Shown here: piece by piece, positions 9,209-52,502 of the stretch | Layout: the number at the start of each line of letters is the position of its first letter | How positions within the stretch are numbered: position 1 is the first letter of the stretch | NCBI GenBank assembly: GCA_043797125.1 | Contig: JAZDPX010000032.1 | Coordinates: forward strand, 10,425 to 74,424 | DNA from: Candidatus Omnitrophota bacterium | Lineage (GTDB): Bacteria; Omnitrophota; Gorgyraeia; JABMRG01; JAFGKX01 | Reading direction: 5' to 3' | DNA: 64,000 bases | Position numbers and translations under genes: made by a program | The notes under the pieces: model-generated | Told to the model about the DNA's origin: nothing | The model's input: only the letters and a program-made list of their open reading frames with translations | Database searches by the model: none

Positions 9209-9210
9209 TC

Positions 9211-9579
9211 ATGGCAGGACGTAAGGTGTTGGTTGTGGATGATGATAAGTACGTGTGCGATGTTGTTAAATTGATGTTGGAAAAGAAAGGCTGCGAAGCT
9301 GTTATTATCTCTGACGGAGAGGCGACTGTCGAAAACGCGGAAGCTGAAAAACCGGATCTTATATTATTGGACATAACTTTGCACGATATAAGCGGTTTTA
9401 AGGTTCTGGAGCGCCTGAAAAACAATCCGACTACCGAGAAAATTCCGGTGGTTATGATGACCGGCAGGGAAGATTACGCCTCTATGGCAAGGGCCAGGGG
9501 CTTGATGGCGGATGATTATCTTACAAAGCCGTTTTTATCGGATGAGTTGTTTGAGAAAATAAGCAAGTATTTCAAATAA
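9211..9579 (+). CDS. Single-domain response regulator (CheY-like receiver)
   Basis: KVLVVDDD...DLILLDITLHDISG...K near the C-terminus. 122 aa with no output domain. Confidence 0.8.
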   Translation: MAGRKVLVVDDDKYVCDVVKLMLEKKGCEAVIISDGEATVENAEAEKPDLILLDITLHDISGFKVLERLKNNPTTEKIPVVMMTGREDYASMARARGLMADDYLTKPFLSDELFEKISKYFK

Positions 9580-14160: not shown

Positions 14161-14162
14161 TT

Positions 14163-14178
14163 GTAGCGCAGGCTTAAG
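14163..14178. repeat. Truncated left arm of the type-1 palindrome (GTAGCGCAGGCTTAAG), immediately upstream of a complete type-2 copy
   Basis: gtagcgcaggcttaag followed by taaatgta and then the full palindrome at 14187-14218. Confidence 0.7.
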
Positions 14179-14186
14179 TAAATGTA

Positions 14187-14218
14187 GCCGTAGCGGAGCC
14201 TTAAGGCTCCGCTACGGC
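14187..14218. repeat. CTTAAG-centred palindrome (type 2) GCCGTAGCGGAGCCTTAAGGCTCCGCTACGGC
   Basis: Perfect 32-bp palindrome. Arms differ from type 1 by paired, compensatory substitutions (CAGG/CCTG to GAGC/GCTC). Confidence 0.85.
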
Positions 14219-14235
14219 CAGGTTGGGATGTCAAT

Positions 14236-15093: not shown

Positions 15094-15105
15094 TTTTTAG
15101 ACTCG

Positions 15106-15137
15106 GATGTAGCGCAGGCTTAAGCCTGCGCTACATC
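15106..15137. repeat. CTTAAG-centred palindrome (type 1, extended to a 32-bp perfect palindrome)
   Basis: gatgtagcgcaggcttaagcctgcgctacatc. Confidence 0.85.
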
Positions 15138-15170
15138 GGGAGATATTGCGAGAGTTAAACTATTACAAAA

Positions 15171-17009
15171 ATGCAAAATGCAAAATTTAAAATTAACATA
15201 TTAAAAGCACTCTTGGCCATAGTAGTTATTTTTGCATGCGCTGCGGCGATTGCCGAGGATATTAATTTTGAGGCGACGGTGGATAGAAATAAGGTTTCCC
15301 TCGGTTCGCGGTTTATGCTAAGCCTTAATTTTTACGGGACGCAGAGCATCCAGGAGCCTGACTTACCGAGCATAGAAGGATTCGATTCGCAATACACAGG
15401 CCCTGCCACGACAATGTCCATTATAAACGGCAAGGTCTCAAGTTCAATAACACACAACTATATACTTACACCGCTTAAAGCCGGTAAATTCGAAATACCT
15501 TCCTTAACAGTCGAATACAACGGTAAAACTTACTCCTCAAGCGCGATACCAATAGAAGTTGCGCAAGGGCCTGTCAGCCCGCTGCCAGGCGCGCAAGGCT
15601 CAACGCAGCAGGAGGCTTCTTATGATTTAGGCGACAGGATTTTTCTTGTTATGGAAGCTGATAAAAATACAGCGTATATAAACGAGAATATTGCTGTAAC
15701 AATTAAACTTTACATGAATAAGCTGCCTATTCGGGATATACGGTATCCGGAATTTGAGCATGAAGGGTTTTTGGCGGATAAATTTGACAAATACAAGCAG
15801 TATAAGGAAGCTATTAACGGGGTTTTATATGATGTTATGGAATTTAAGACAAATGTTTCAGCTACACAGACGGGTGAACTCAAAATCGGGCCAGCAAGCT
15901 TAAAATGTAATCTCATCGTGCAAAGAAGGCCAGGCAGAAGAGGCTCTGTATTCGACGATGATTTTTTCGGCTCGGATATCTTTGACGATTTCTTCGGGCG
16001 TTACGAAACATATCCTCTGGACTTGAAGTCAATGGATATATCTATTTCCGCGTTGCCCTTGCCTGATGAAAATGTTCCCGCTGATTTTAACGGCGCAATT
16101 GGGGATTATAATTTTTCTTTGGAAGCTAATCCGAAACAGCTCAAGGTGGGTGACCCTATTACCTTAAAAATGGCCATAAGCGGTAAAGGCAATCTTAATA
16201 CAATTCAGGCCCCAGCGCTTAATTTCGGCGATGATTTTAAGGTTTATGATCCCGAGATAAAGCAAGGCGATAATGTTAAGGAATTCGAACAGGTTATAAT
16301 ACCCAAAAGCGACAAAATAAAACAGATACCTGAAATTTCATTCAGCTTTTTTAATACTCAGTCAGGTAAGTATGAAAAAATTACTAAAGGCCCCACGCCT
16401 ATTATTGTAGAGCCGCTTGCCAAAGGCGACGAGCTGCAGGTTTTAGCAGCTCCTGAGCAAATTGTAGCCCAAGCGCCTAAGCAAGAAATATTAGGCAGAG
16501 ATATCATATATATTAAAGACACGCCGGGCGAGTTAAAGAAAAAAGGAGCATTTTTATGCAGGAGCAAGGCGTTTTTAGCGCTGCAACTATTGCCGCTTTT
16601 AGCTGTCATATCCGTACTTATTTTACATAAGAGGTACAAGCGCCTTACAACCGATATCCGTTACGCAAGGCGCATGCGCGCGCCGAAAAAGGCAAGAAAG
16701 AATCTGCAGGCGGCAAGGCAGCTTCTTAATACGCAGGGTGCGGATAAATTCTTCGAAGCTGTTTTTAAGACTTTGCAGGAATATCTCGGGGATAAATTCC
16801 ATCTTCCGACCGCAGGTATAACCTCAAGTGTGGTAGATGAGTTAAAAAAATATAACATCGATCAGGACGTTCTCTCTAAACTAAAGGATTGTTTTAACAG
16901 CTGTGACGCGGCGCGTTATGCCGCCTCCAGCATTACAAAAGACCAGATGCAAAACGCCTTTAAGATGCTTGAAGAGATAATTGATGAACTTGAAAGGGTA
17001 AGGCTATGA
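15171..17009 (+). CDS. batD: BatD-like oxygen-tolerance protein
   Basis: Signal peptide, large beta-rich extracytoplasmic domain, C-terminal TM segment plus a basic tail. Position in the batA-E operon. Confidence 0.65.
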   Translation: MQNAKFKINILKALLAIVVIFACAAAIAEDINFEATVDRNKVSLGSRFMLSLNFYGTQSIQEPDLPSIEGFDSQYTGPATTMSIINGKVSSSITHNYILTPLKAGKFEIPSLTVEYNGKTYSSSAIPIEVAQGPVSPLPGAQGSTQQEASYDLGDRIFLVMEADKNTAYINENIAVTIKLYMNKLPIRDIRYPEFEHEGFLADKFDKYKQYKEAINGVLYDVMEFKTNVSATQTGELKIGPASLKCNLIVQRRPGRRGSVFDDDFFGSDIFDDFFGRYETYPLDLKSMDISISALPLPDENVPADFNGAIGDYNFSLEANPKQLKVGDPITLKMAISGKGNLNTIQAPALNFGDDFKVYDPEIKQGDNVKEFEQVIIPKSDKIKQIPEISFSFFNTQSGKYEKITKGPTPIIVEPLAKGDELQVLAAPEQIVAQAPKQEILGRDIIYIKDTPGELKKKGAFLCRSKAFLALQLLPLLAVISVLILHKRYKRLTTDIRYARRMRAPKKARKNLQAARQLLNTQGADKFFEAVFKTLQEYLGDKFHLPTAGITSSVVDELKKYNIDQDVLSKLKDCFNSCDAARYAASSITKDQMQNAFKMLEEIIDELERVRL

Positions 17010-17779
17010 AAGTGCGGCTTGCTATTATGGTATTAGTATTCCTTATAATTTCAGTTTTTGCGGCTGCGGCCCGCTGCGACGATGCAAGTGATGCCCGCTC
17101 ATATTTTGCCAAGGCAAACGCCGATTATGCCGCGGAAAAGTTTGATGAGGCAATCGCTGATTACGAAAACGCCTTAAAAACAGGCTTTGAGAGCAGCGAA
17201 CTTTACTATAATTTAGGCAACGCCTATTTTAAAAGCGGACAATTAGGCAAAGCTATTTTAAATTATTCGCGCGCCAAGCGCTTTATGCCGAATGACGCTG
17301 ATTTAAAATCAAACCTCGAATATGCGCAGTCTCTTATAAAAGGCGGGGCGGCCGCCGCGCAGGCGAACTGGTTTGCGCACTTATTTTTAAAATTAACAGA
17401 TTTATTTAGCCTGGATAAAATTACTTTAATAAGCTCAATCCTGTATTTTATATTAGCTGCCTTGATTATTTTGGCAATTGTACTGAGCGATTTAAGAAAA
17501 ATCATAATTTATGCCGTAATAGCGGTCTGCATATTATTAAGCATATCCGCATCATCTTTATATGCGCAATACTACAGGACAATCGTTGAGAAGGAAGCGG
17601 TTGTTGTAGCCCAGACCGTTGACGCCAGATTCGAGCCTTTTGATGACGCGACCGTGTTTTTCAGTTTAAGCGAAGGCGAAAGCGTTGTCGTAGTCGCGGA
17701 AAGAGAAGACTGGGTAAAGATTAAGCGCCTTGATGCAAAGCAAGGCTGGATTAAAGAAGCTGACATAGAGTTGTTATAG
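17006..17779 (+). CDS. batE: TPR + SH3b-like protein, BatE-like
   Basis: Signal peptide, TPR motifs (YYNLGNAYFKSGQLGKAI), TM segment, C-terminal SH3b-like region (WVKIKRLDAKQGWIKEADIEL). Confidence 0.6.
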   Translation: MKVRLAIMVLVFLIISVFAAAARCDDASDARSYFAKANADYAAEKFDEAIADYENALKTGFESSELYYNLGNAYFKSGQLGKAILNYSRAKRFMPNDADLKSNLEYAQSLIKGGAAAAQANWFAHLFLKLTDLFSLDKITLISSILYFILAALIILAIVLSDLRKIIIYAVIAVCILLSISASSLYAQYYRTIVEKEAVVVAQTVDARFEPFDDATVFFSLSEGESVVVVAEREDWVKIKRLDAKQGWIKEADIELL

Positions 17780-17873
17780 CTAACTAAGGCCTCAGGGTCC
17801 TGCCCGTCACAAGTTCGGTTTTTGCAATGTTCAGAGCTGTTTAGCAAAGGCCTGTGACAATCCTCGCAGGGAC

Positions 17874-17904
17874 GCAAAAAAATCCCCAGCGAGGATTTTT
17901 TTGC
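17874..17904. terminator. Bidirectional terminator-like hairpin
   Basis: gcaaaaaaatcc ccagcga ggatttttttgc: a perfect 12-bp stem with A/T runs on both sides. Confidence 0.5.
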
Positions 17905-17954
17905 TCTGACCTCGGCCTTCGCTCTCGCCTGTATGGAAACAAAGCAAAACTATA

Positions 17955-18060
17955 GTCGTTCGGCTGGGGCCCCTCCGAAATTCACCTAAAGATAGTAGGT
18001 CAGGCTTAAGCCTGACCTACTATCCAAGGGTTCAGTTTCGGTGTCCCCAGCCTGCACTCC
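17955..18060. repeat. About 105-bp composite imperfect palindrome with a perfect 34-bp CTTAAG-centred core (type 3: GATAGTAGGTCAGGCTTAAGCCTGACCTACTATC, 17991-18024)
   Basis: The flanks cggctggggcccctccgaaattcacc and ggttcagtttcggtgtccccagcctg are imperfect inverted repeats around the perfect core. Lies within the 530-bp non-coding region upstream of the giant gene. Confidence 0.7.
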
Positions 18061-18198
18061 TATGTTTTGCCTGCAACCAAAACAAGTGACCAAATCTTCC
18101 GCTATTGTTTTTTCGGCTATGCCCAAGGGGCTTATTGCCGTGAATCCTTAAGCAAAACCTAACATTTCATTATTTTGTAACAAAATTCCAAAAAATCC

Positions 18199-18227
18199 TT
18201 GACAGAAGTGCTATAAATTGCTAAAAT
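18199..18227 (+). promoter_or_regulatory. Sigma70-like promoter (TTGACA-17-TAAAAT) for the giant-protein locus; the -10 lies inside an inverted repeat GTGCTA...TAGCAC
   Basis: ccTTGACAgaagtgctataaattgcTAAAATattagcac, with an about 75-nt leader and RBS AGGAGGGG before ATG 18312. Confidence 0.55.
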
Positions 18228-18311
18228 ATTAGCACTTTTTAAATCATCAAACCATATCAATAAAAAGTTTAGAATAATCAGGGGAAACCTAATATAATAG
18301 GAGGGGAAAAA

Positions 18312-21300
18312 ATGTCAAAATTGACACAAAAATTTTTCACCATTATTATCTGCTTAGCCTTTATCGGGCAAAGCACGAATCTGGGTTACTTACCTTCACC
18401 AAACTCATCTAATACGCATACCTTGCGCGGAATGGCGTCGCAATTCGAAATATTACAGGAACTAGAAGAAGAAATGGCAAATGTAATGCCGAAATTTTAC
18501 ACAGCTGAAAATACCGGGCCCTATATGCCATATTATCAGTTGGACAGATCCTTTTTGCAGGGAAAGGTCGGATTTGCAAGGCTTGGATGCGATACGCCTA
18601 TGGATAAAAAGAAACAGAAGGAAATGAAGGATCTGGTTAAAGAGAAAAAAGATATGTCCCTTCTTCTTACCGATGTCAGCCGTATAGCAGACCCTGCCAG
18701 AATAGACTCCGCTATTGAAACTTTAATACACGTTATACGAAACGGCGGCAGGGTAGTGCTGCAGCCCGGCTGGATTGGCAGGCCCGAAGGTAAAATTAAG
18801 GCAGAATTAAGCGTAGTTCCGGTATTTTTGTATATAAGGGACAAGCTTGTAAAAGCAGGAGTAATAAAAGAAGATGAAATGATCCTCTGTCCCACGGATT
18901 TAGAAAAAAGAGAATGCAAAAGCAATTTCCAGAATGTAGGCGTAATTCGGGAGGCTATTAAAACCCATCTTAAAGATTTTAGGAAAGATGGCGAATCGGA
19001 TAAGGATTATAACAAAAGAAAGGGCAAGGTTAAGATATTGTGCCTTGAAAATCCAAGATTCGATAAAGAGTACGATAGCTTTAAATACAAAGATTTTAAG
19101 GATAGCAAAATAGAGGAACCTGCATTTATAAAGATGCTTAAAGAGGAGATTGCTTATGTTGTTTATGATGACTTCAATCATCAGCACAGGCCGCCGGCTG
19201 ATATATCCCTTCTGCCTGAATATGTACCCTCTTTTGTGGGAAAACGACTGGCTGAAGAAATCAGAATGGCTGATATATTATTGGAGATACTTAATAAGAG
19301 AGATAGAAAACCTTTTGCCTTATATCTTGGAGGAAAGAAAATAGAGACAAAGCCAGGCAAGATTTCCAAGGTAACGGTTGCGCTGGAATTAATCAGAAAC
19401 GATATGATGCGCAAGGATGACAGGCTTCTCATAGGCGGCGGTGTTGCGTATGCCTTTTTGGTTGCCCAGAAATATATAGATAGAATCATAACAGGCTTCG
19501 TAGATGACCCCGATAAAATAATCAGCCAGGAGGCTGTAAAGAAAATTACTCGCGGTGAAATAAGTGATGTTATCGGAGATTCATATATCTCGGATGACCC
19601 GTTTGATACAGAAGAGGGTTTAAAACAGGCGCATGAGAGAATTTATACTTTCGCGCAGCTTTTGGTTGAGGCAGCGAAAAGAGGCATTAAGGTCGGGCTG
19701 CCAATAGATCACAAAGTCAGAAACAACAAAACCGGGCAAATAAAAGAATGTACAGGTAATATTGAACGTGGCTGGTATGGTATTGACATTGGTTCCAAAA
19801 CTCGAGAAATGTATAACGGTGCCAGAAAAGGCATAAGCGCAGGTTTGATTGCAGGGCCTATGGGTATAGCTGATGACCCCGACCTTCCCGAAGGCACAGA
19901 AGGCACAGACATAGTCCTTAATGGCCTTGCGGAAGAGACGAGGGATAACGGCGCCTATACATTAAGCGGCGGAGGCGAGACAACGTTCAGGGCAATGGAG
20001 ATTAAAGTATTGCTTTCATGGCTTTCCTTAGGAGGCGGCGCTTTGCTGGAATATATTCAGAAAAATCGCGAGCTGCATGGCCTGCTTGCGCTAAAGAGAT
20101 CAGCGGAGAAATTTGCCGAGGGGAGGGTGTTAGCAGTTTCTGATGCGAAATCAGTGGAAGACACCATTCAGCAGATTAGGCCCTTATATGAGTCGCTGAA
20201 TAAGATAAGAATAGCCATGCCTTCCAATAAAATACAATATAAAATATGGGCGTTAATCAACTATTTCAGAAAAAAGATAGCTACGTTAACAGGCGCTCCG
20301 TGGAAGATACCTATTACTGCGGGGAACTGGAAAGAGAATATAGGAGAAGAAGAAGATGCAAAAAAATTGATTAAAGAAATGATATATGACCTTCGTTTCA
20401 TAGAAGGGGTTATACCTTTTATATGTCCAACAGCTGCGCATTTAAAAATTGCCGCAGAAGCCATAAAAGAAATGGAAGACAAGGGAATTATAGCAAAAGG
20501 AAAATTCACTCTCGGAGCCCAGGATGTGAGCGCCTATGGGGATAAAGAAATGAGCCCCTATTATAAGGATATAAGAGAGCAGTCAGGCAGAACGCATATA
20601 AAAACTATAATAAATGCAGGCAAAGGATATGTTAAATTTATTATTGTAGGCCATTCCGAGACATGCAGGACTCCTGTAGGGGTGGGCGACGAAGAGGGAG
20701 GCGCTGTGCCGGCCGGGCCAGCTTACGATCCTTTATGTGATTACGATGTGAATAACAAGGCGAAATTAACATTAAAATACGGCCTTACTCCAGATATATG
20801 CATAGGCGAAAGTTACGCGGAAAGAAACGCGGAAAAACTATATCCAACTGCTGACGCAAGAAAGGCCTTTCTTTTAAGACGCGGCATAACAGATGATACC
20901 GGAGAACCGGCATGGAAGCAGATTTTAAGACGCCAGATTCAGAGGAGGTTTTTAGGCCCGGATCCCGACGGTGCGATTACTACTAAGATTACCAAGGAAG
21001 ATATTTTACAAAAAGGCATCTATCTTTCCTACGAACCTATCCACTTTATAAGTTTTGGCAACGTAAACGCGGTCGTGGATATGAAGATTGTCGAAGAAGC
21101 CAACAGATTTATCACCTCGGAGATACTCAAGTTGTATGATAACGATAAAGACATAAAGGATAAGATACAGACCGAGGTAATAAAATACGGCGGCAGCGCC
21201 AATGAAACAAACGGCGAAGAGATAATCTCTACTATTTTCACCATAGGCACCATAGCGGGTGGAGCGAGCAGAACTTCAGCCAGATACCTGGGCCTTAACG

Positions 21301-24300
21301 TGGCATTCGGCGGCTGGATGATTCCCCAAAACGCAATTTTAGAAATCGAAGCGGAGCTTAAGCAATTGCGCAAGGCGCTTAAATCTACGCCGGCTGATTC
21401 AAAAGATGCGTCTTTGGCCTTAGAAGGGCAAATAAACCTGCTTAAGGAATTAAAACAGATAGTGCTTGAGATTATGAAAAAGCAAGGTATAGCTATACCG
21501 GCGCCAAGGATACCGACCGAGCAAGAGATGGCCATATATCTGCAGCTTAAAAAGGTAAAAGCTGTTACAGACGCTCAAGCGCAGTATGCCGGAGCTTATA
21601 TTCCAATAATTGATATGGTAAGACAATTTTATAAAAAGGCAGAAAAGACAGTAATAGATAAAAAGAAAGGGATAGAAGCGCTTGCTAAATATAAAAGTGT
21701 TTCATACAAAGACGTAGACAGCATAGAAGATGATAGCGTAGTTATATTCTGCAATCCGGAAAAAGATATGTTTACGGCGAGATTATGGTCATTCGCTTCG
21801 TACAAGAACGACTATTATAAAGATTATAAAGATTACACAATCTACATAATAGGCCATGCGGATGAGTTCGAGGCTGCGATAGCGGCGGAAGAGGCGAAAA
21901 AGCAGGCGAAAGAGGATGCGAAAAAGACTGAAACTGATACAACAAAAACGAACAACTATAATGCTACTGAAAGTGGCCATGTTGATAATATGCCTGATTT
22001 AACGGGCTTTGGCCGTAACGTGCAGATGCCATACACGCCTTCAGAGGCGGAGATGAACCTGTATATTGCGGCTGTAAAGGTACAAAACGTTACTAATGTA
22101 AAGGGCGTTCAAGTTAAAAGAGGCGATGCCTTTGCAGAAGTATATAGTGACGAGGCCACCAGGTTAGAGGGCGAGGCAAAAAGCTTTGTTAAGAAACAAG
22201 ACCTCAAGAAATACAAGCGTATTTCATATAAGAACAGAAAAGAGATACCTGACGGATCATTGGTTCTATTACCTGCTAAAGATGCAGGAAGGGACGGATA
22301 CAGGGTGACTATATGGTCTGCAAAGAAATACAATAAGGGGGTTTACTCTGGGGAGTTGTATAAATACTTCACCTCCTCCACCGCTTATATAATAGGCCAC
22401 AGAGATGACTTTGAAGTTCTCATAACGGAGTCGCCAAAAAAATATGCTGAGTTATTAACTATGCAGTCTGGATGGGGTGACAAGTGGACCGAGTATTACC
22501 ATATAGTAGCTATAGATAAAGCAATCGAGGACTATACAAAAGAGTTGAATACAAGGGAACGCGACTTGTTAACACCGGAAGGCATATACGAAGAGTATTG
22601 CAAGGTATTAGACGGGGCAGACAGCGCAGAGTTATACAAGATGGCATGGGAATTCGCGTTACGGAAAGATTTTAAGAGCTTATCAACAATATCTGATATA
22701 AAGCAAGTAGCGCCCGGGGACATAATTATTATTACCGATACCAATCCAAAACAGAAAAGTGTCATTAATGTAATTGTGTATGACCCGCAAGAGCATGACT
22801 TAATTGTATCTGCCGCGATTTCCGATTTTAAGAAAGCCGAGGTGCGCTACATAGGCAATAAAAATATGTTTGAAGATAAAATATCTGTAACAGCAAAAGA
22901 CGTATTAAAAGTATATCTGGAGTTTAATAAAAGCGTGACTAACAATGATAAGTTTTTTAAAACCCACGGCATCAGGAGTACAATTGTTGAAAAGTTTGTG
23001 CGTTCCGGCAATTTTAAAAAGCTGCCTGTTGTCAAAAATCAAGACTATCTGCACTCGGGGTCGCTGTTTATTGCCGCTAAAACACAATGGGATAAGCAAT
23101 TAAGCGGGGATGTTCGCCTTATATTTGTAAGCGCTGGCAAGAGACATGCAATAGAGTATGGAGACTGGTGGAGCGCTGACGGGTCAAAAATCAGCGAGTA
23201 TGAACTCCGCTGCATAGGGCCTATCGCGTTAATAAAGAATGAGTTGGGTGAAAAGGCTGTTTCTAAGTTGAAAGACGAGATCGGCTACATAAAAGTTGAG
23301 TTAAAGAGACGGGAAAAACTAAAGAAAGAGATGACGGGAAAAAAGACGACTGTTTCTTCCGAGAAATCCCTTACCTGGCAAATTCCAAAAATTACTCCGA
23401 AAGATATACAAACTGTGTATGATGAGTACGTCAAAAAATATGATAGATGGTACCCATGGTCTATAGACCCGAAACGCCCGGATAATATTCCCGGATATGG
23501 GCTATTTTTAGAAGAAAAGGATATTCGCCCCCTAATAAATCCAAAGGGCATATGGGCGCTACGCAAAGTTATAGATAAAATAGCGGAAGAGGCTAAGATA
23601 GAAGGGAAAAAAATTGACTTAACAACGCACCCTGACGACCGCTTGTATCACAACAAGCTAGTCGAAATATGCCGGTGGACGCGTGTCGATTTAGGTAATG
23701 CGCTGGATATGATGCTTAAGGAACCAAACCGTCTGGGCTATGTGCTTACAAGCAAAGAAGACGCAATATCAAATTGCTTATATATTTCCAGTCTTACTGC
23801 TTATGAGTCTCTCGACAGCGAACAACAGAAGCGTTACAGAGATGGACTAGGGGGATGGCGCAATAAAACATTGCATCAACTAGCTGATGAGCGTATTGCC
23901 ACAGGAGAGGAAATTGCCAGTATGGACCTAACGCAATTCAAGAAGTATAAGTTCCGTCAAATACTGGTACAAACAGAGGATAAAAAGACGAAAGAAAAGA
24001 CGCAAGGACCCAATTACGACGTTACCGAACTTGCAAAAGGAAAAGTTGATGAGTTTACACCAGGAGAAGGTGCCATTCCTGGTGTTATGGTTGGCGCAAA
24101 TAATGCCCTCCAGACGGCCTTAGATATTATTAATACACCATCTTCCACCACGGACGAGAAGCAAATTGAAGAGTATGCAAAATCATTAGATAAGGCTGAA
24201 GAATCGCTTGACAAGGCAATAAATGCAACAAATTTGAAGGATGATTTTAGCGGTTTTAAGGCAATTGCTGCAGAAGGCACAGGCCTGCCTACGGGCACCA

Positions 24301-24959
24301 TAGATGAAGCCAAGGAGCAGTGGCAATACAGCACGAACATTCTACACGCGGTAAAAGGAATAAGTGCTGCAACAAGAATAAGAGGCCTGGAAGACGCAAA
24401 TCAGGATATTATTAAGCCGTTTACCATGTTTATAGATAAAACAGCGCCTTACCAGAAGCAACTTGAATGGGCAAAAGAGCTGGGTGTGTTTGATGTTGCA
24501 AAAGAGAAGTTCGGATGCCAGACAATAGAATTCGATCCTGCAAAAGATAAGATAGACGAATTATTAAAGCAAGCAAACGTCAGCAAAGACATGGCAATGT
24601 TTATCTCGCAGCCTAAATATAAAGAAAAACTTGAAAGAGCTGAAATTAAATCCATAATTATAGACAAATTCGAGCAGGGTATGTTCATAGATTTTATGAC
24701 CCTGGCAGGTTTTTCAAAGGTAATGCTCTATCTGGCCAAATATGGTGAGAATCAGGAATATAAGGACATTAAATCCAATTTATGGAATCTTGCCCAGCTG
24801 TTGTATAGGTCCTTAACTGGCGAGAGTGCGGTGCTTGAAAAGGATAGTATAACCAGTTTTGCAATTAATTTACCCTTGCCTGAACCCAAGGCTTTACTAC
24901 CAGACGAGAAGTTGAGAGAGCTGATTAAGATATCCGCGGAAACAGCAGGCAAGGCGTAA
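18312..24959 (+). CDS. Giant (2215 aa) protein: N-terminal signal-peptide-like segment, complete phosphoglycerate kinase-like domain, complete triosephosphate isomerase-like domain, about 1200-aa K/E-rich C-terminal region of unknown function with internal repeats
   Basis: PGK motifs: ETLIHVIRNGGRVVLQPGWIGRPEG...SVVPVFLYIRDKL (cf. SHLGRP...LKDKL), KILCLENPRFDKE (LENxRF), AYVVYDDFNHQHRPPAD (DAFGTAHRA), FALYLGGKKIETK, LLIGGGVAYAFLVAQ (GGGMAxTFL), GIDIGSKT...GLIAGPMGIAD...GTEGTDIVLNG...TLSGGGETTFRAMEIK...LGGGALLEY. TIM motifs: ITAGNWKEN, FTLGAQDVSAYGDKEMSPYYKDIREQSG...FIIVGHSETCR, ICIGESYAERNAEK, SYEPIHFISFG, VIKYGGSANETNGEEI, IAGGASRTSA. The C-terminal half has a duplicated module (...TIYIIGHADEFE / ...AYIIGHRDDFE). 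Confidence 0.85.
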   Translation: MSKLTQKFFTIIICLAFIGQSTNLGYLPSPNSSNTHTLRGMASQFEILQELEEEMANVMPKFYTAENTGPYMPYYQLDRSFLQGKVGFARLGCDTPMDKKKQKEMKDLVKEKKDMSLLLTDVSRIADPARIDSAIETLIHVIRNGGRVVLQPGWIGRPEGKIKAELSVVPVFLYIRDKLVKAGVIKEDEMILCPTDLEKRECKSNFQNVGVIREAIKTHLKDFRKDGESDKDYNKRKGKVKILCLENPRFDKEYDSFKYKDFKDSKIEEPAFIKMLKEEIAYVVYDDFNHQHRPPADISLLPEYVPSFVGKRLAEEIRMADILLEILNKRDRKPFALYLGGKKIETKPGKISKVTVALELIRNDMMRKDDRLLIGGGVAYAFLVAQKYIDRIITGFVDDPDKIISQEAVKKITRGEISDVIGDSYISDDPFDTEEGLKQAHERIYTFAQLLVEAAKRGIKVGLPIDHKVRNNKTGQIKECTGNIERGWYGIDIGSKTREMYNGARKGISAGLIAGPMGIADDPDLPEGTEGTDIVLNGLAEETRDNGAYTLSGGGETTFRAMEIKVLLSWLSLGGGALLEYIQKNRELHGLLALKRSAEKFAEGRVLAVSDAKSVEDTIQQIRPLYESLNKIRIAMPSNKIQYKIWALINYFRKKIATLTGAPWKIPITAGNWKENIGEEEDAKKLIKEMIYDLRFIEGVIPFICPTAAHLKIAAEAIKEMEDKGIIAKGKFTLGAQDVSAYGDKEMSPYYKDIREQSGRTHIKTIINAGKGYVKFIIVGHSETCRTPVGVGDEEGGAVPAGPAYDPLCDYDVNNKAKLTLKYGLTPDICIGESYAERNAEKLYPTADARKAFLLRRGITDDTGEPAWKQILRRQIQRRFLGPDPDGAITTKITKEDILQKGIYLSYEPIHFISFGNVNAVVDMKIVEEANRFITSEILKLYDNDKDIKDKIQTEVIKYGGSANETNGEEIISTIFTIGTIAGGASRTSARYLGLNVAFGGWMIPQNAILEIEAELKQLRKALKSTPADSKDASLALEGQINLLKELKQIVLEIMKKQGIAIPAPRIPTEQEMAIYLQLKKVKAVTDAQAQYAGAYIPIIDMVRQFYKKAEKTVIDKKKGIEALAKYKSVSYKDVDSIEDDSVVIFCNPEKDMFTARLWSFASYKNDYYKDYKDYTIYIIGHADEFEAAIAAEEAKKQAKEDAKKTETDTTKTNNYNATESGHVDNMPDLTGFGRNVQMPYTPSEAEMNLYIAAVKVQNVTNVKGVQVKRGDAFAEVYSDEATRLEGEAKSFVKKQDLKKYKRISYKNRKEIPDGSLVLLPAKDAGRDGYRVTIWSAKKYNKGVYSGELYKYFTSSTAYIIGHRDDFEVLITESPKKYAELLTMQSGWGDKWTEYYHIVAIDKAIEDYTKELNTRERDLLTPEGIYEEYCKVLDGADSAELYKMAWEFALRKDFKSLSTISDIKQVAPGDIIIITDTNPKQKSVINVIVYDPQEHDLIVSAAISDFKKAEVRYIGNKNMFEDKISVTAKDVLKVYLEFNKSVTNNDKFFKTHGIRSTIVEKFVRSGNFKKLPVVKNQDYLHSGSLFIAAKTQWDKQLSGDVRLIFVSAGKRHAIEYGDWWSADGSKISEYELRCIGPIALIKNELGEKAVSKLKDEIGYIKVELKRREKLKKEMTGKKTTVSSEKSLTWQIPKITPKDIQTVYDEYVKKYDRWYPWSIDPKRPDNIPGYGLFLEEKDIRPLINPKGIWALRKVIDKIAEEAKIEGKKIDLTTHPDDRLYHNKLVEICRWTRVDLGNALDMMLKEPNRLGYVLTSKEDAISNCLYISSLTAYESLDSEQQKRYRDGLGGWRNKTLHQLADERIATGEEIASMDLTQFKKYKFRQILVQTEDKKTKEKTQGPNYDVTELAKGKVDEFTPGEGAIPGVMVGANNALQTALDIINTPSSTTDEKQIEEYAKSLDKAEESLDKAINATNLKDDFSGFKAIAAEGTGLPTGTIDEAKEQWQYSTNILHAVKGISAATRIRGLEDANQDIIKPFTMFIDKTAPYQKQLEWAKELGVFDVAKEKFGCQTIEFDPAKDKIDELLKQANVSKDMAMFISQPKYKEKLERAEIKSIIIDKFEQGMFIDFMTLAGFSKVMLYLAKYGENQEYKDIKSNLWNLAQLLYRSLTGESAVLEKDSITSFAINLPLPEPKALLPDEKLRELIKISAETAGKA

Positions 24960-24981
24960 GCCGGCGTAGGGCAAATGTAGG

Positions 24982-25060
24982 GGCGCCATTTATGGCGCCC
25001 TGATGTAGGGGGGGCTTGATTTATCAAGCCCACAAAAATAGGGTTCGATAAATCGAACCC
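24982..25060. promoter_or_regulatory. Three tandem perfect palindromes (18, 18 and 20 bp) with AT-rich 2-nt centres, between the giant gene and the next gene
   Basis: GGCGCCATttATGGCGCC (24982-24999), GGCTTGATttATCAAGCC (25013-25030), GGGTTCGATaaATCGAACCC (25041-25060). Each is preceded by (t)aggg. They share the central ATTTAT/ATAAAT core but have different arms. Confidence 0.55.
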
Positions 25061-25091
25061 CTACTGCTATTAAGCAAAATAAGGGGATTTC

Positions 25092-27815
25092 ATGCCGAGT
25101 TTACCTAAAAAAGCAGTAACTGTCCTTATTGCCGCTATTTTCATCGCGCAAAGCGCAAATCTGAATTACCTTTCCGCTCAAACCCAATTAAACACGAACG
25201 CATTGCGGGCCATGTCCATGGCTATTGAGCTTGATCCAAACAAGGCTATTATAGAAAAAGTAAAAGAATACTACGCTGAAAAAGGCATAAATGCCGATGA
25301 TTATTATGTTCCGCCCATAGTAGGCAAAGATATATTTGGAAAAGAGCTGACCATAAATAAAGGCGATATAGTTATCCATGCTAACCATCGCGCAGACAGA
25401 GTTTTTGAAAGCTTATTTTCCCTTACAGATCCTGATTTTAATAAAGACAGCCAAAGGTTTGATACCCCTGATTTGGGCTTGCATGTCGTCGCCTTTGCTA
25501 ACCACGATTCAAAATATTTCGCTAAGCATGGCATAGAAGCTGCTTTTACCATCAACGAAGAAGACTACAGGCCTTCATACGATTCCTTGGTGGATGTCTT
25601 GTATGAAAATAATATCAAGCAGGGGTATTTTACAGAAACAGATAAGGGTAAACATGTAAGTTATTTTTTAGCAGGCCAGCGTAATCTTCCTTATGAGGAT
25701 ATGGGGATACACGTGGAAATCGTTGCTTCTCAATCAGTATCTGATAAGGAAAAAGACCCTAATATGCAGTATAAGGAAATAACATCAAACGCCATTAACT
25801 TTTTACAGAATAACAGCTCTGATGAGCCTGCTTTTATTTTGGTAAATTATCCTGTCGATATCCAAGGCCACAATATTAAATGTAATAAGCAAAGAGCTAT
25901 TGATACAATATCAGCCTGCGATAGGGAAGCTGAAAAACTATATAATGCGGTAAAAGAAATGGGCGGTGTATGGATAGATACATCCGACCACGGCAACGTT
26001 GAAGAGTTAGCTGTTTTGGATAAAAATGGCATGCCTGTAACGGATAAATACGGCAATATCCCTTATGACCAGCATACTGCTAATTCTGTTCATTGCATAA
26101 TAGACGGTTTAGGAAATGTTAATCTTAAAGATGGCAAGGGCCTGGCCAATATCGCCCCCACCGTCCTTGAAATTTTAGGAATTGATAAGCCGAAGGATAT
26201 GGAAGAAAGCCTGCTTAAAGATTATAAATACAAAAAGATAAAAGGCCCTGTTGTGGTTGTTGTGCGCGACGGCTGGGGTAAAAGCAAGTTTACTAACCCT
26301 GAGGCATTGGAATGGAATGGATTAGAACTGGCTAAACCCGCCTTTTTTAACCGGCTTAAAGAAACCGCCCCCATTACTTGGATTAAGGCGCACGGAAGCG
26401 CTGTTGGCCTGCCTGATTATCAGGAGGGCGATTCTGATAACGGCCATCGCACCATAGGGGCAGGAAAGATACTGCCGACATTATATAAATTAATTATAGA
26501 CCAAATAGAATCAGGCGATTTTTATAAAAACGAAGTTCTGCGCAATATCTTTAAAAAAGCCATAGAAGAAAAGCACGATATATGCGTGATGGGCCTTGAT
26601 TCCGACGGAGGAATACACTGCGATCATAAGTATTTTCTTGCTTTAATAGAAATGGCAAGGTGTTTTGACATTAAAAAGCATGGCATAAAGCTGAAGCTTT
26701 TTCCGATTTTAGACGGAAGAGACAGGATGACCAGAATATATGAACAAAGCGGAGCTTACTATCTTGAGGATTTAGACAGAAAGATAAAAGAAGCGGGTCT
26801 TGCAGGCGCTGCATATATAGCTCAAACTGTCGGAAGATATATGGCAATGGACAGAGACGCTGTAAACGCTGATAAGGAAAGAGAACGCCTTGAGCAGAAA
26901 TTATCCGATGCCTTAAAACCGGATGATCCCGCGAATAAAGCTGACAATATTGTGAAATTAGTATCAGGTATTACAGCATCTGTGACTAAGGAAATTGCAA
27001 AAACAGAAAAAGAGCTGGCCAAGGCAAAAGACGCGCCAAAACAGGCATTTTTTAACAGCATAATTAATTGTTTGAATGCCATTGGGCAGCTTAATGAGAA
27101 ATTTAATCTTGAAAACGCGAAAGGCAAAAATAGGAATAATGAGAAAATAATTGAATTAGGAAAGAAAATAGCTGAAAACAAAAGACAGGAGTGGCTTATC
27201 CGCGCTAGCGCATTATGGCAGGAGCGTTACAAGGTAGCTTACGATGCCTGGGTTTATGGGAGCAAAGCTCCTCAAATGAAGTTCATGGAAGCCGCCGCGC
27301 ACAAAGATGAGCCTTTGAGCGAGACGGTTGATTATTCAGAACCGCAGCCTGCAGATAAAAAGGGTGTATGTGTACAATACAGCTATGTTCTGCATTTAAG
27401 AAATAAGTTAAAAAAACATTTTGATACAACAACAACTTCAACTCTAACAGCTGCGGAACTAACATTAGAGGAAATAATAGTGGAATGTGTTAAAAATGAA
27501 GTATTTTATGCTTCAAACCCATTATTTATTAAAGATTCTGAATCTATAAAAGCTGATGGGGTTTATTTTTCAAGCCGTGCATTTAGGAGTAGAAAGTCAA
27601 TCACGGAACAAAATAAGCTCTGCAAGGATATATATATTCTTACGGGTGCGGGAATGGCCGATGTTGAGTCAGTAGCAAGATGGCAGTACCTGTTTGTAGG
27701 TAACCTGGATGAGAAAATATTAAAAAATGGATTCTCTGATAATCCAGGCGCAGAGAAAGTCTATCCTAATGATTCGCAGAAGCTGCTGGACATCGCAATT
27801 CTTGCGGCTGCGTAA
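25092..27815 (+). CDS. 907-aa protein: signal-peptide-like N-terminus with motif shared with the giant protein, circularly permuted 2,3-bisphosphoglycerate-independent phosphoglycerate mutase (GpmI-like) domain, about 200-aa unknown C-terminus
   Basis: C-terminal-half GpmI motifs come first: DIVIHANHRADR (FMNFRADR), FILVNYPVDIQGHN (ICNYPNGDMVGHTG), WIDTSDHGNVEEL (ITADHGNAE), LANIAPTVLEILGI (DIAPTMLSLMG). N-terminal-half motifs come second: VVVVVRDGWG (VLVILDGYG), AHGSAVGLPDYQEGDSDNGHRTIGAGKI (GLPDRQMGNSEVGHxNLGAGR), VMGLDSDGGIHCDHKYF (GLLSAGGVHSH), ILDGRDR (FLDGRDT), GRYMAMDRD (GRYYAMDRD). Confidence 0.85.
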   Translation: MPSLPKKAVTVLIAAIFIAQSANLNYLSAQTQLNTNALRAMSMAIELDPNKAIIEKVKEYYAEKGINADDYYVPPIVGKDIFGKELTINKGDIVIHANHRADRVFESLFSLTDPDFNKDSQRFDTPDLGLHVVAFANHDSKYFAKHGIEAAFTINEEDYRPSYDSLVDVLYENNIKQGYFTETDKGKHVSYFLAGQRNLPYEDMGIHVEIVASQSVSDKEKDPNMQYKEITSNAINFLQNNSSDEPAFILVNYPVDIQGHNIKCNKQRAIDTISACDREAEKLYNAVKEMGGVWIDTSDHGNVEELAVLDKNGMPVTDKYGNIPYDQHTANSVHCIIDGLGNVNLKDGKGLANIAPTVLEILGIDKPKDMEESLLKDYKYKKIKGPVVVVVRDGWGKSKFTNPEALEWNGLELAKPAFFNRLKETAPITWIKAHGSAVGLPDYQEGDSDNGHRTIGAGKILPTLYKLIIDQIESGDFYKNEVLRNIFKKAIEEKHDICVMGLDSDGGIHCDHKYFLALIEMARCFDIKKHGIKLKLFPILDGRDRMTRIYEQSGAYYLEDLDRKIKEAGLAGAAYIAQTVGRYMAMDRDAVNADKERERLEQKLSDALKPDDPANKADNIVKLVSGITASVTKEIAKTEKELAKAKDAPKQAFFNSIINCLNAIGQLNEKFNLENAKGKNRNNEKIIELGKKIAENKRQEWLIRASALWQERYKVAYDAWVYGSKAPQMKFMEAAAHKDEPLSETVDYSEPQPADKKGVCVQYSYVLHLRNKLKKHFDTTTTSTLTAAELTLEEIIVECVKNEVFYASNPLFIKDSESIKADGVYFSSRAFRSRKSITEQNKLCKDIYILTGAGMADVESVARWQYLFVGNLDEKILKNGFSDNPGAEKVYPNDSQKLLDIAILAAA

Positions 27816-27826
27816 GAAGAGTGTAA

Positions 27827-27860
27827 AGCCGTAGCGGAGCCTTAAGGCTCCGCTACGGCT
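27827..27860. repeat. CTTAAG-centred palindrome (type 2, 34-bp perfect) plus an adjacent small hairpin cttgccggctggcaag; apparent insertion into a 3' motif that is uninterrupted at 62989-63015
   Basis: agccgtagcggagccttaaggctccgctacggct, flanked by gtgtaaag on the left and gcgttaagtgtaaagt on the right. Confidence 0.8.
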
Positions 27861-27973
27861 TGCCGGCTGGCAAGCGTTAAGTGTAAAGTAACAGCGTAGG
27901 ATATTTGATGTAAAGATAGCCGTAACTATTACAAATAACGTTGCGGCTATTTTAATATGAAGGATTTAATTTT

Positions 27974-29368
27974 GTGACTAAATTTTTTAGAAGGACAATC
28001 GCGGTTATTATTATCGCCGGCTTAGGCGCAGGCCAGGCGAGCGCCGACGCGCTCAGGCCTTCTGCCTTCGTGAATGGGCCTGAAAAAACAGCGCAAGAAC
28101 AGGCCTTCGAAAACCTTAAAAAGGCTTTTGATTTAAAAGGCGCGATAACCAAAGCTTTACTTGCCGAAGCGATAAATGAATTAGAGGATATATTTAATAG
28201 CCGCAGCCAAAGCGCGCGGGATACAATAGTAAACAATATTGCATATCCGTTTTTCGAAAGAGAAAAAGCCTCCCCCGGCAAAACCGCTTCGGAAACCCCG
28301 ATAAAGAAAGATCTGCTGGATAAAATTAAAGTTTTCGGGATAGATGTTATTCCTACGGGGGACGTTACTTTCATGTGGAAGGAGACAGCAAAAAATGGGC
28401 CTTTGGAATTAACAAACGTAATATATAATTCCGGCGGCGGCTCTGTGAACATAGCGAAGGTGTTCGCGAATTTTAATGAATATTTCGGCCTTATGTCTTT
28501 TGCGGGCAGAGGCAGATTCCATAAGAGATGGCGCCAAGATTTTGAAAGCGAGCACGTCATAAATTTCAGGTTTTTTACAGAGCAGCTTCACCGCAAGATA
28601 AATATTTATAATATTGTCAAGGGCGAAAAACTTCCTGTTCTATGCAGCAGGGGAAATACTATTCCAAGGGTTATAGTTAATGAGTTTTTAAAAATATTCG
28701 AAAAAAAGCTTAAAAAATGCAAAAATGTTAAATTTTTGACACTAAACGCCAGCTCAATGGTGGCGTTTGAAGACGCAGATGCGCTACGGGCATACAAAAA
28801 GATTATAGAAATCGCCCATAAGCATAAAAATAAAATCGAAGTTTTGATAGATTTTTCCTCGACCACAAAGCCGGATGTTATAAAAGCTGTTTTAGAATTA
28901 AATGAGCCAAGGAAGCGGCCTTGCGATATCATCACTCCGAGCCTTGAGCAGTTTATTAAGATATTGGAAAGCACAGGCTTGGCCAAAAAAAACGAGTTAT
29001 CCAGAGATACGCTGACCGACAAAAAAATAGCTACCTATGCCTGGCAGCTGATAAAGGACTATAACCTTTCAGCTGTCTTAATAAAGAGAGATAAGGACGG
29101 TTTGATATTGGTCAGGAACAATTATGAGTTTATGAGAGAAAAAGGGCTTGAGGTTGAAGTAGTATCTGAAATTGCTGCCGGAGACGCCGCTGCCGCCGGG
29201 CTTTTAATCGCTTTATCTGAAGGCAAAAGCTGGCAAGAAGCCATTAAGACGGCGGATTTATTTGGCGCCGCAACGGTTATTTTGCCCGCTACCGAGGTGG
29301 TTACCCCTGAAGCGCTTGATTTTGTCAAAAAAGAACAAATCCTGCAGAATATCTCCCAAGCGGCGTAA
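27974..29368 (+). CDS. PfkB-family (ribokinase/phosphofructokinase-B superfamily) carbohydrate kinase with N-terminal signal peptide; GTG start
   Basis: Signal MTKFFRRTIAVIIIAGLGAGQASADA. PfkB N-terminal glycine motif NSGGGSVNIAKVFANF. C-terminal ATP-site motif EIAAGDAAAAGLLIAL (cf. GAGDxFxGGFL). Confidence 0.75.
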   Translation: MTKFFRRTIAVIIIAGLGAGQASADALRPSAFVNGPEKTAQEQAFENLKKAFDLKGAITKALLAEAINELEDIFNSRSQSARDTIVNNIAYPFFEREKASPGKTASETPIKKDLLDKIKVFGIDVIPTGDVTFMWKETAKNGPLELTNVIYNSGGGSVNIAKVFANFNEYFGLMSFAGRGRFHKRWRQDFESEHVINFRFFTEQLHRKINIYNIVKGEKLPVLCSRGNTIPRVIVNEFLKIFEKKLKKCKNVKFLTLNASSMVAFEDADALRAYKKIIEIAHKHKNKIEVLIDFSSTTKPDVIKAVLELNEPRKRPCDIITPSLEQFIKILESTGLAKKNELSRDTLTDKKIATYAWQLIKDYNLSAVLIKRDKDGLILVRNNYEFMREKGLEVEVVSEIAAGDAAAAGLLIALSEGKSWQEAIKTADLFGAATVILPATEVVTPEALDFVKKEQILQNISQAA

Positions 29369-29395: not shown

Positions 29396-29423
29396 TTGAC
29401 ATTATATAGTATTAGACTATAAT
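29396..29423 (+). promoter_or_regulatory. Sigma70-like promoter TTGACA-16-TATAAT upstream of the flavoprotein gene (would give a leaderless or very short-leader mRNA)
   Basis: atTTGACAttatatagtattagacTATAATgtggcgatgaatatg. Confidence 0.4.
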
Positions 29424-32176: not shown

Positions 32177-32188
32177 TTGTGGATTATA

Positions 32189-52493: not shown

Positions 52494-52502
52494 TTCTATG
52501 CT

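Follow-up and report, generated by a model that had tools for sequence, protein, structure and literature searches.

What are three glycolytic-type enzymes doing behind N-termini that resemble secretion signals, and on which side of the cytoplasmic membrane would they act? The question is raised by three consecutive genes, here termed W1, W2 and W3, in a stretch of 64,000 nucleotides from Candidatus Omnitrophota bacterium (assembly GCA_043797125.1, contig JAZDPX010000032.1, positions 10,425–74,424), hereafter the window, to which coordinates refer unless another contig is named. The original prediction, made from the letters alone, named three same-strand open reading frames (ORFs), and these are present as listed below; their products are 100% identical to consecutive NCBI entries from a Candidatus Omnitrophota metagenome-assembled genome. 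In our reading, to which we give about an even chance, W1–W3 would be accessory paralogues exported through Sec and drawn from an Omnitrophota-specific repertoire of enzyme modules that also occurs in very long proteins.

18312–24959, plus strand: W1, 2215 amino acids (aa), MFH0732372, annotated 'phosphoglycerate kinase'
25092–27815, plus strand: W2, 907 aa, MFH0732373, annotated 'hypothetical protein V2A72_05580'
27974–29368, plus strand: W3, 464 aa, MFH0732374, annotated 'PfkB family carbohydrate kinase', with a GTG start and an AAGGA ribosome-binding site

The first step towards an answer is to establish what these proteins are. W1 begins with a signal-like N-terminus and a short motif, here called the LR tag, which are followed by a PGK-like domain, a TIM-like domain and approximately 1200 aa without a detected homologue. 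Its internal features are as follows.

18522–20144, plus strand: PGK-like domain of the GW(I/L)xRP type, aa 71–611, with three large insertions
20304–21272, plus strand: TIM-like barrel, aa ~665–987, with long insertions
21504–22466, plus strand: internal repeat of ~150 aa, at aa ~1065–1205 and ~1240–1385, with the pattern YKxxSYK...YIIGHxDxFE

Both enzyme folds had been proposed beforehand, and both are supported by Pfam profiles above their gathering scores: PGK (PF00162) covers aa 116–583 (E=1.6e-40; 139.8 bits against a gathering score of 27), and TIM (PF00121) covers aa 667–843 and a second stretch (E=7e-12; 45.7 bits against 20.1). A search of PDB sequences with W1 likewise returned only PGKs and TIMs, the PGKs at E=4e-23. 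The protein does not reach the cut-off of the equivalog NF010569 (156.5 bits; cut-off 883), nor does its TIM part reach that of the NCBIfam equivalog (24.9 bits; cut-off 293), and identities to the canonical enzymes (tblastn) are 27% for the PGK-like and 25% for the TIM-like domain. Aligned with the canonical PGK of a contig (L015) that also carries a W2 relative, the PGK-like domain keeps the arginines of the 3-phosphoglycerate (3-PG) patch (in TRI, GRP, NxRF and AHR), both lysines of GGAKVSDK and the GGG motifs, and shows a set of changed ligand contacts: SH to GW (so that SHLGRP reads GWIGRP, as had been noticed originally), RxDFN to RxGxD (D to G/A, N to D), NGP to AGP, FE to DD and GGGD to GGE. 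The roles of these residues, which we take from PGK structures, are presumably those of the 3-PG basic patch and of nucleotide/Mg ligands. Replaced residues and retained Arg and Lys alike are invariant across the PGK-like family, which suggests that the chemistry was retuned rather than lost. In the TIM-like domain, an alignment to Staphylococcus aureus TIM locates the expected NWK, GHSE, YEP and YGGS signatures and also GGAS, with a loop-6 lid that reads PIHFISFGN against the canonical PVWAIGTG. From these motifs, PGK-like and TIM-like chemistry is probably kept, possibly in retuned form.

The remainder of W1 is less tractable. The internal repeat scores 123 by Smith-Waterman alignment against a shuffled maximum of 51, two weaker downstream copies were judged by eye, and the region has no Pfam match. 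No homologue of aa 1010–2215 was matched in a word-indexed search that also missed the identical database entry, P0001, and an AlphaFold2 model of aa 1016–2215 from the single sequence, with a mean predicted local distance difference test (pLDDT) score of 35, was unusable.

W2 is ordered as a signal-like N-terminus, an LR tag, a circularly permuted iPGM, a helical insertion and an orphan C-terminal region of ~170 aa. Two segments make up the enzyme.

25227–26216, plus strand: iPGM segment 1, aa 46–375, equivalent to canonical ~219–543; second half of the transferase and C-terminal half of the phosphatase
26247–26861, plus strand: iPGM segment 2, aa 386–590, equivalent to canonical ~9–202; phosphatase N-terminal strand and first transferase half

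In Pfam terms, Metalloenzyme (aa 163–366, E=3.5e-31) precedes iPGM_N (aa 470–590, E=1.6e-30). The permutation, which the original prediction had recognized, is borne out by NCBIfam profile mapping, in which TIGR01307 positions 208–503 fall on W2 48–374 and NF003897 positions 4–196 on W2 383–591, and the swapped order was confirmed by tblastn with canonical iPGM. The break point falls within the transferase domain, and the original N- and C-termini are fused to each other. Segment 2 holds DGWG and the phospho-Ser motif GDSDNGH; both motifs named beforehand, DSDNGH and DHGN, are present. In an alignment of six sequences at 41–45% identity (W2 and five close relatives), D393, S448, D256, H260, D299, H300, H328, H509, R543, D544, R582, R588 and K185 are all invariant; their metal, phospho-Ser and substrate roles were assigned by motif and are assumed to be those of the Bacillus stearothermophilus enzyme. 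By this comparison, W2 has very probably retained iPGM chemistry. Its identity to canonical iPGM is 28–33%, and against TIGR01307 it scores 278 bits and does not reach the cut-off of 330.65, so that threshold-based pathway annotation may miss such genes. A model built from the six-sequence alignment (mean pLDDT 50) predicts a helical insertion of ~130 aa after segment 2 (aa 588–721) and matches only iPGMs in Foldseek, in part; the C-terminal 170 aa of the same model have no Foldseek match. A scan of metagenomes with the iPGM profile gave no match, and no description of a permuted iPGM turned up in the literature searched.

W3 belongs to the PfkB family, as proposed: PF00294 covers aa 141–435 (nt 28394–29278; E=1.4e-20, 74.3 bits against a gathering score of 25.8), and a conserved helical extension of ~110 aa precedes the fold. 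The best subfamily is that of hexose kinase/1-PFK (TIGR03168), whose cut-off is not reached (74.8 bits; cut-off 216.4); identity to canonical PfkB is 22% (tblastn), and a PDB search returned one weak sugar-kinase match. The GG motif and the catalytic Asp are kept. The GAGD-like motif mentioned in the original prediction is found as AAGD, accompanied by PSLE (G to A, N to S), where relatives read GAGD and PNxxE, and from these residues it is uncertain whether W3 has retained kinase chemistry.

Scores of this kind are also what might be met if the proteins were exported but no longer catalytic, their enzyme folds having been co-opted for binding, adhesion or scaffolding, for example in prey attachment or the binding of phosphorylated polymers, as a built-in counterpart of surface 'moonlighting'. 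All domains lie far under their cut-offs (156 against 883, 25 against 293, 278 against 331 and 75 against 216 bits) at 22–33% identity to canonical enzymes, the PGK ligand contacts are systematically replaced (H to W, N to A, D to E, D to G, N to D), and W3 has AAGD/PSLE in place of the GAGD/PNxxE of its relatives. The TIM lid loop is altered in W1 and the TIM-like part is faint in the relative P0002 described below, more than half of W1 is repeat-containing sequence without an assigned fold, and several glycolytic enzymes of Gram-positive bacteria and mycoplasmas are known as surface moonlighters. Against this stand the invariance of every iPGM metal, phospho-Ser and substrate residue at 41–45% identity, the intact TIM catalytic residues of W1, and PGK-like substitutions whose fixation throughout the family suggests retuning instead of loss; export without catalysis appears improbable to us.

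The second step concerns the N-termini. As originally proposed, each protein has a hydrophobic core followed by a shared short motif, L-R-x-x-[AS].

18312–18374, plus strand: W1 signal-like segment; K3/K7, core F8–G19 (12 aa), then G-Q-S
18420–18440, plus strand: W1 LR tag TLRGMAS, aa 37–43
25200–25220, plus strand: W2 LR tag ALRAMSM, aa 37–43
28049–28069, plus strand: W3 LR tag ALRPSAF, aa 26–32

The signal-like segment of W2 comprises K6/K7, a core at A8–A19 and A-Q-S, and that of W3 (aa 1–24) comprises R6/R7, a core at I9–G20 and A-S-A, so that all three appear to fit the layout of a Sec substrate of signal peptidase I, with a basic n-region, an h-region of ~12 residues and a small-x-small site. 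No further hydrophobic or transmembrane (TM) segment was found in W1–W3 by the Kyte-Doolittle method. The first 47 aa of W1 and W2 share 40% identity (BLASTP E~1e-5).

The tag follows the signal-like segment after 0–20 residues with the consensus [STNAK]-L-R-x-x-[AS]-[AS], and nearly all enlarged enzymes in related contigs share this design, with tags such as ALRTEAA in an enolase, TLRTQSA in an FBPase, KLRGSAA in a PPDK, NLRRPSA and SLRKPAA in iPGMs and SLRSMSA in a PGK. The box before the tag is often [GAS]-[YFW]-A, and its conserved forms are AYA/G, GYA/G, VYA/S, VWA/L, AFA/L, AHA/V and ASA/D, the slash marking the predicted cleavage site. Among 112 ORFs of at least 150 aa from the window and non-redundant loci, LR..[AS] after a hydrophobic core was present in every cytoplasmic-type enzyme protein (10/10); of the ~36 remaining ORFs whose N-terminus is hydrophobic, BatB alone has it, by chance. 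The ordinary secreted proteins of the scanned loci have similar signals without the tag, which was absent from their substrate-binding proteins, glycoside hydrolases, TPR proteins, BatD and secretin. NCBIfam contains no model for the tag or for either terminus.

Other N-terminal signals were considered and set aside. A Tat signal fits poorly, because only W3 has FRRT, W1 has isolated lysines, W2 has KK and most relatives have no RR. Neither a lipobox Cys nor a prepilin G/F-T-L-x-E sequence occurs in W1–W3, which excludes lipoprotein and type IV pilin signals, and a true pseudopilin in the related contig L011 contrasts with their N-termini.

The third step is to ask in what company such proteins occur. 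Relatives of the W1 PGK-like domain are found in proteins of 1620–3726 aa, in an ORF of more than 6509 aa and in one signal-bearing gene of ~500 aa; the GWxxRP type is present in 4 of 185,579 GTDB species representatives, and a profile scan of metagenomes found it on a single contig (JGI). The close relatives of W2 are proteins of 921–1567 aa fused to PGM, methyltransferase or HAD domains. For the W3-like PfkB domain, a HMMER search of 1.84e9 representatives yielded no more than 21 clusters at E<1e-10, the majority of which are parts of proteins of 618–4743 aa with Response_reg, GNAT, CheR, HATPase_c or WD40 domains. Gene order or domain content in relatives is as follows.

L006: TIM+PGK (1536 aa), enolase (1253 aa), a 1751-aa protein, iPGM, PilZ, sugar ABC transporter, glycoside hydrolases
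L007: a 7199-aa protein, PilZ, methyltransferase-iPGM, FBPase (1019 aa), PPDK
L014: a protein exceeding 3050 aa with GPI, TIM, PGK and enolase, a protein with no Pfam domain, PGM-iPGM
P0002: aldolase, PGK and TIM in 2361 aa

The TIM-like part of P0002 has a 'faint' Pfam match and was missed by phmmer. In L011, a PGK-like gene with a signal sequence is flanked by GspE/F/J genes on one side and PilM-GspL/GspD genes on the other. In the long relatives P0104, P0105, P0108, P0110 and P0117 the N-terminal motifs are mostly others, such as LNLPxPG.

Several features of these clusters deserve a separate record. The PGK-like gene in the type II secretion system (T2SS) cluster of L011 adjoins a gene for a signal-bearing ARMT1-like sugar-phosphate (damage-control) phosphatase (8113–9558, minus strand), so that a further phospho-sugar enzyme of cytoplasmic type stands behind an export signal there. 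A conserved protein of 1641–1751 aa is encoded between the enolase/PGK gene and the iPGM gene in L006 (4746–10001) and L014 (5019–9944); it has an ordinary signal peptide but neither LR tag nor Pfam domain, and its role might be that of a cluster scaffold or of a component exposed at the surface. The enlarged enolase (L006, 955–4716) and FBPase (L007, 15193–18252) have in common a domain of ~240 aa right after the LR tag (31% identity, E=3.5e-37), and a C-terminal domain of ~200 aa in the L006 enolase recurs in the iPGMs P0009 and P0012 (E=6e-14); both domains are missing from W1–W3.

With this material, the site of action can be weighed; each of the three alternatives in the original prediction (a membrane tether, delivery into another cell, co-option for binding) keeps some probability. 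We judge the export of W1–W3 to be somewhere between an even bet and mildly probable, and it is favoured by the n/h/c organization, the short core and the conserved cleavage box, as well as by the position of the L011 PGK-like gene in a T2SS cluster and by the PilZ, sugar-transporter and glycoside-hydrolase neighbours in L006 and L007. In the proposed sequence of events, W1–W3 would pass through Sec and be cleaved by signal peptidase I, and the LR tag, then at or near the new N-terminus, would serve as a second-step sorting or assembly signal, with hand-over to the T2SS or docking in the envelope as candidate roles. Competent PfkB-like, TIM-like, PGK-like and iPGM domains would thus end outside the cytoplasm, in the periplasm, at the surface or in an attached prey cell, where they would interconvert phosphorylated C6/C3 sugars.

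Several observations weigh against this proposal. The 19-residue Kyte-Doolittle means of 1.47–1.66 are borderline for an anchor, and the association with the T2SS consists of one locus (L011) and one preprint statement. PGK and PfkB need ATP/ADP, which a normal periplasm does not contain. The enzyme clusters showed no GAPDH partner, which leaves the supply of 1,3-bisphosphoglycerate unexplained. Six relatives have a conserved Arg at +2 of the predicted cleavage site (A/LR), a residue that, according to studies in Escherichia coli, disfavours Sec export at this position. The kinase motifs of W3 are weakened (AAGD, PSLE), and four homologues (P0007, P0013, P0111 and P0113) have no signal, which implies that such modules are able to function inside the cell.

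Much of this would be accommodated if the N-terminus were not cleaved at all and instead anchored the enzymes on the cytoplasmic side of the inner membrane, the LR tag binding a partner, in a tethered glycolytic metabolon that serves the cell's own glycolysis and in which the phosphoglycerate mutase step may even be carried out by W2. The reactions depend on ATP, the iPGM and PGK-like families show no variation in catalytic residues, the order TIM/PGK-enolase-iPGM recalls a gap-pgk-tpi-pgm-eno operon, and the signal-less P0013 adjoins a canonical gap-pgk-tpiA-secG operon. In many members, moreover, an Arg right after the core places basic residues on both of its sides, and the permuted iPGM, which misses the TIGR01307 cut-off (278 against 331 bits), could escape pathway annotation. 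A 2026 preprint, in its passages on the subject, also favours the cytoplasmic face for long proteins that have metabolic domains and TM segments only (10.64898/2026.06.07.730766). The hydrophobic core is, however, just ~12 residues long, and it is followed by a conserved small-x-small box with an aromatic residue at -2 that an anchor would not need. The basic residues before the core predict an N-in/C-out orientation, the Arg of W1 and W2 lies ~20 polar residues past the core, the L011 gene has its T2SS neighbourhood, and the PGK-like type is too rare for housekeeping. On balance, a tethered metabolon strikes us as rather unlikely, though still a serious rival.

Rarity also bears on whether W1–W3 could be housekeeping genes. 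The original prediction noted that the window has no stand-alone pgk, tpiA or gpmI, and tblastn with canonical proteins as queries found no other PGK, TIM, iPGM or PfkB copy, nor any GAPDH, in the window. The further suggestion that these might be the organism's only copies is unlikely to hold for PGK, because the GWxxRP type is rare, PGK is universal in the genomes of a preprint and canonical and enlarged genes are found together in L015. According to that preprint, PGK (K00927), GAPDH and enolase are present at a strict KEGG orthology (KO) threshold in 176/176 complete Omnitrophota genomes (10.64898/2026.06.07.730766). In L015, the signal-less W2 relative P0013 stands directly beside the canonical gap-pgk-tpiA-secG operon, which shows both that canonical and enlarged genes co-exist and that a permuted iPGM can be a cytoplasmic enzyme in a glycolytic context. 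The W1 PGK is thus best seen as accessory. In the same contig, gap-pgk-tpiA-secG occurs twice, inverted around P0013 (3513–6397, minus strand, and 12692–15844, plus strand), with one copy in fragments; this looks like a fold-back artefact of long-read assembly rather than biology.

If export is taken one step further, the signal together with the [GAS]-[YFW]-A...L-R-x-x-[AS]-[AS] tag could form a two-step signal that takes active enzymes through Sec and then the T2SS to the surface or into prey, where they would process the sugar phosphates of the prey. Its cargo would be the PfkB-like, TIM, PGK and permuted iPGM domains here and enolase, PPDK, FBPase, aldolase and GPI elsewhere, possibly yielding ATP or PEP for uptake. 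A prey-directed role is conceivable, though speculative, because macromolecule transfer from predator to prey has been shown for the intron RNA of Ca. Velamenicoccus archaeovorus and because some Omnitrophota classes have ATP/ADP translocases. As a whole, this extended scheme is doubtful, and we offer it tentatively; if it held, an ultra-small bacterium living as a predator or epibiont would be carrying out glycolysis outside its own cell or across cells.

The layout of the locus speaks to whether the genes are real. Pseudogenes, mis-assembled chimeras or over-called ORFs might be suspected since the source is a metagenome-assembled genome and the C-terminal 1200 aa of W1 have no homologue, albeit in a search that missed W1's own entry too. 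Yet the ORFs run without interruption over 2215, 907 and 464 codons; ribosome-binding sites precede them, and they appear to share the promoter that had been described originally. The G+C content of the locus is uniform and equals that of the surrounding DNA, and assemblies made independently (NCBI, JGI, ENA and Logan) contain homologous architectures. An artefact is accordingly very hard to credit. The flanking genes are of housekeeping type (Bat operon, PolX, MnmG, GDH, CarB, GuaA, PurL and GltB), with a BatA-D/MoxR operon upstream of the locus and FMN reductase and PolX downstream; no PilZ or T2SS gene adjoins W1–W3 in the window. The non-coding features are listed below.

~17859–17905: terminator of the upstream Bat operon, inside the 532-bp gap before W1
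17991–18024: perfect 34-bp palindrome centred on CTTAAG, in the gap upstream of W1
18199–18227, plus strand: putative sigma-70-like promoter TTGACA-17-TAAAAT with a TG-extended -10, 11/12 consensus matches
~18300, plus strand: GGAGG ribosome-binding site of W1
24977–25061, plus strand: three look-alike short GC-rich hairpins in the W1-W2 spacer, without a plus-strand T-tract
27826–27861: perfect palindrome of 36 bp between W2 and W3, with CTTAAG at its centre; sister of the 34-bp one
29396–29423: perfect promoter TTGACA-16-TATAAT for the gene after W3

The single promoter claimed upstream of W1 was thus located, by consensus match only. The accompanying claim of a non-coding leader of about 530 bp needs correction: the 532-bp stretch is the intergenic gap and mostly not leader, as the 3' end of the promoter lies ~85 nt before the W1 ATG. 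The hairpins in both spacers among W1–W3 have no T-tracts, and it is plausible that the three genes form one transcription unit. Palindromes and hairpins could be repetitive extragenic palindromic (REP)-like elements, RNA-stability elements or processing sites; an Rfam scan of the whole window, spacers included, gave no match.

A possible fourth member of the group lies further along the window.

49839–51626, minus strand: W4, 595 aa, with HATPase_c (aa 277–392) as its only Pfam domain

Its N-terminus, VRKIITIILLIILTMPQSAYS/LRPIANN (...QSAYS/LRPIANN), has an A-Y-S box, and its C-terminus reads ...DSAA. W4 may instead be an ordinary membrane histidine kinase, because weaker hydrophobic stretches occur at ~54 and ~200. 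It is situated in a low-GC patch (0.35 at 50–52 kb), next to a UPF0236 transposase fragment (51778–52266, minus strand) and a Fic gene (52485–53654).

The C-termini were considered as a second place for a common signal. A -AA end is found in W2, W3, W4, P0002, P0102, P0108, P0117 and the giant upstream in L001, far in excess of the ~1% expected by chance; other members end in hydrophobic residues (IAV, SFI or KFV), and an L-P pair often lies ~27–30 residues before the C-terminus, although in W3 it belongs to the kinase fold. That -AA ends act as ligands of the PDZ or tail-specific-protease type is speculation. The -AA enrichment, which is not universal and has no supporting model, was not taken as a C-terminal signal, and a shared C-terminal alpha/beta docking domain was likewise dismissed after hhalign found no similarity between the C-termini of the PGK group and those of the iPGM group.

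Three further observations concern neighbouring genes. Downstream of the aldolase-PGK-TIM giant in L001/L002, an intein-interrupted RtcB RNA ligase is encoded beside an archease (17690–20680), and upstream lies a protein of more than 3300 aa with an ABC1 kinase and an M48 peptidase, ending ...AVAKAA. Within the window, a 927-aa ORF (32177–34960, plus strand) encodes an unusual fusion of two enzymes of the tRNA- or RNA-modification type, in which an entire MnmG/GidA is combined with a radical-SAM domain that includes Radical_SAM_C.

What the locus means depends on where its products act. The general phenomenon of metabolic enzyme domains in exported or membrane-bound Omnitrophota giants is already described in preprints, but giant proteins of 10–147 thousand aa are close to intractable, and in the passages devoted to them neither preprint could place the domains or show activity. 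W1–W3 are a tractable form of the same puzzle, with 464–2215 aa, one N-terminal signal and one or two enzyme folds each, and the LR tag is a mutable handle on a possible new sorting route. Should the enzymes prove extracytoplasmic and active, views of metabolism and predation in this widespread and uncultured phylum would change; should they face the cytoplasm, they would be an example, rare in bacteria, of glycolytic enzymes assembled on a membrane. A naturally circularly permuted iPGM is, in addition, of interest for protein evolution.

The closest known systems are the Omnitrophota giants, so the original statement that no system of this kind had been described does not stand: two preprints, in the parts that deal with these proteins, report glycolytic domains in signal- or TM-bearing giants and discuss the localization paradox. 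The 'Archaeovorins' are described there as carrying TIM, GPI, FBPase, PGM/PMM, aldolase and PPDK domains (West-Roberts et al. 2023, 10.1101/2023.11.21.568195), which are predicted to be extracellular with the caveat of a possibly missed TM helix, and T2SS and PilZ genes are noted beside the giant genes (10.1101/2023.11.21.568195). In the corresponding passages of the second preprint, 'multi-enzyme metabolic clusters' are reported and 94% of long Omnitrophota proteins are credited with a signal peptide or TM helices (10.64898/2026.06.07.730766). W1–W3 resemble these giants in phylum and in that central-carbon enzymes of cytoplasmic type belong to proteins for which export or membrane attachment is predicted; in the contigs of their relatives, genes for PilZ, the T2SS and sugar import occur in the vicinity, and the PGK-like and PfkB-like modules are homologous to modules in proteins of 3–6.5 thousand aa. 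They differ in size (464–2215 aa against 10–147 thousand aa) and in having a single N-terminal hydrophobic segment; at E<=0.1, Pfam showed neither a SecA/DEAD nor a C39/S8 peptidase family in them. Archaeovorins, as defined by West-Roberts et al., have at least 30,000 aa, numerous TM regions and a SecA-DEAD domain (10.1101/2023.11.21.568195). On size, TM regions and SecA, W1–W3 are therefore relatives of the Archaeovorins, not members. The passages of both giant-protein preprints on N-termini, signal peptides and secretion do not contain the LR tag, and neither the tag nor the mid-size signal-only class, the enlarged-glycolytic operons, the GWxxRP PGK-like family or the permuted iPGM was found in NCBIfam or in the corresponding parts of the Omnitrophota literature searched.

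Individual domains also have better-known counterparts. The PGK-TIM fusion of Thermotoga (NF010569 / PRK13962) is the best NCBIfam match of W1 and has the same order of PGK then TIM in one chain; its profile, however, has 645 positions, whereas W1 has large insertions and a 1200-aa extension and scores 156 bits against the cut-off of 883. In Thermotoga the fusion is a housekeeping enzyme of the cytoplasm and has no signal peptide. W2 shares both domains and all catalytic residues with iPGM of the GpmI/GpmM type (TIGR01307; PDB 1o98, 2ify, 3igy), but the permutation, the helical insertion of ~130 aa, the signal, the tag and the C-terminal extension set W2 apart from that type. W3 resembles the PfkB kinases (1-PFK / Pfk-2 / LacC) in its best subfamily match, GG motif and catalytic Asp, and differs from them in its ~110-aa N-terminal helical extension, AAGD/PSLE, signal and tag.

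For the cell biology, two comparisons are instructive. In kinetoplastid glycosomes, and in the mitochondrial lower glycolysis of stramenopiles and oomycetes with its TPI-GAPDH fusion, glycolytic paralogues are diverted by short terminal targeting signals; this is an analogy only, since the eukaryotic compartments hold ATP and NAD and the signals are not homologous. On the surface of Gram-positive bacteria and mycoplasmas, enolase, PGK, TPI, PGM and aldolase are repeatedly met as moonlighting proteins, which places the same enzyme set outside the cytoplasm. Those moonlighters, however, are housekeeping proteins without signal peptides, whereas W1–W3 are dedicated, divergent paralogues with predicted signal peptides.

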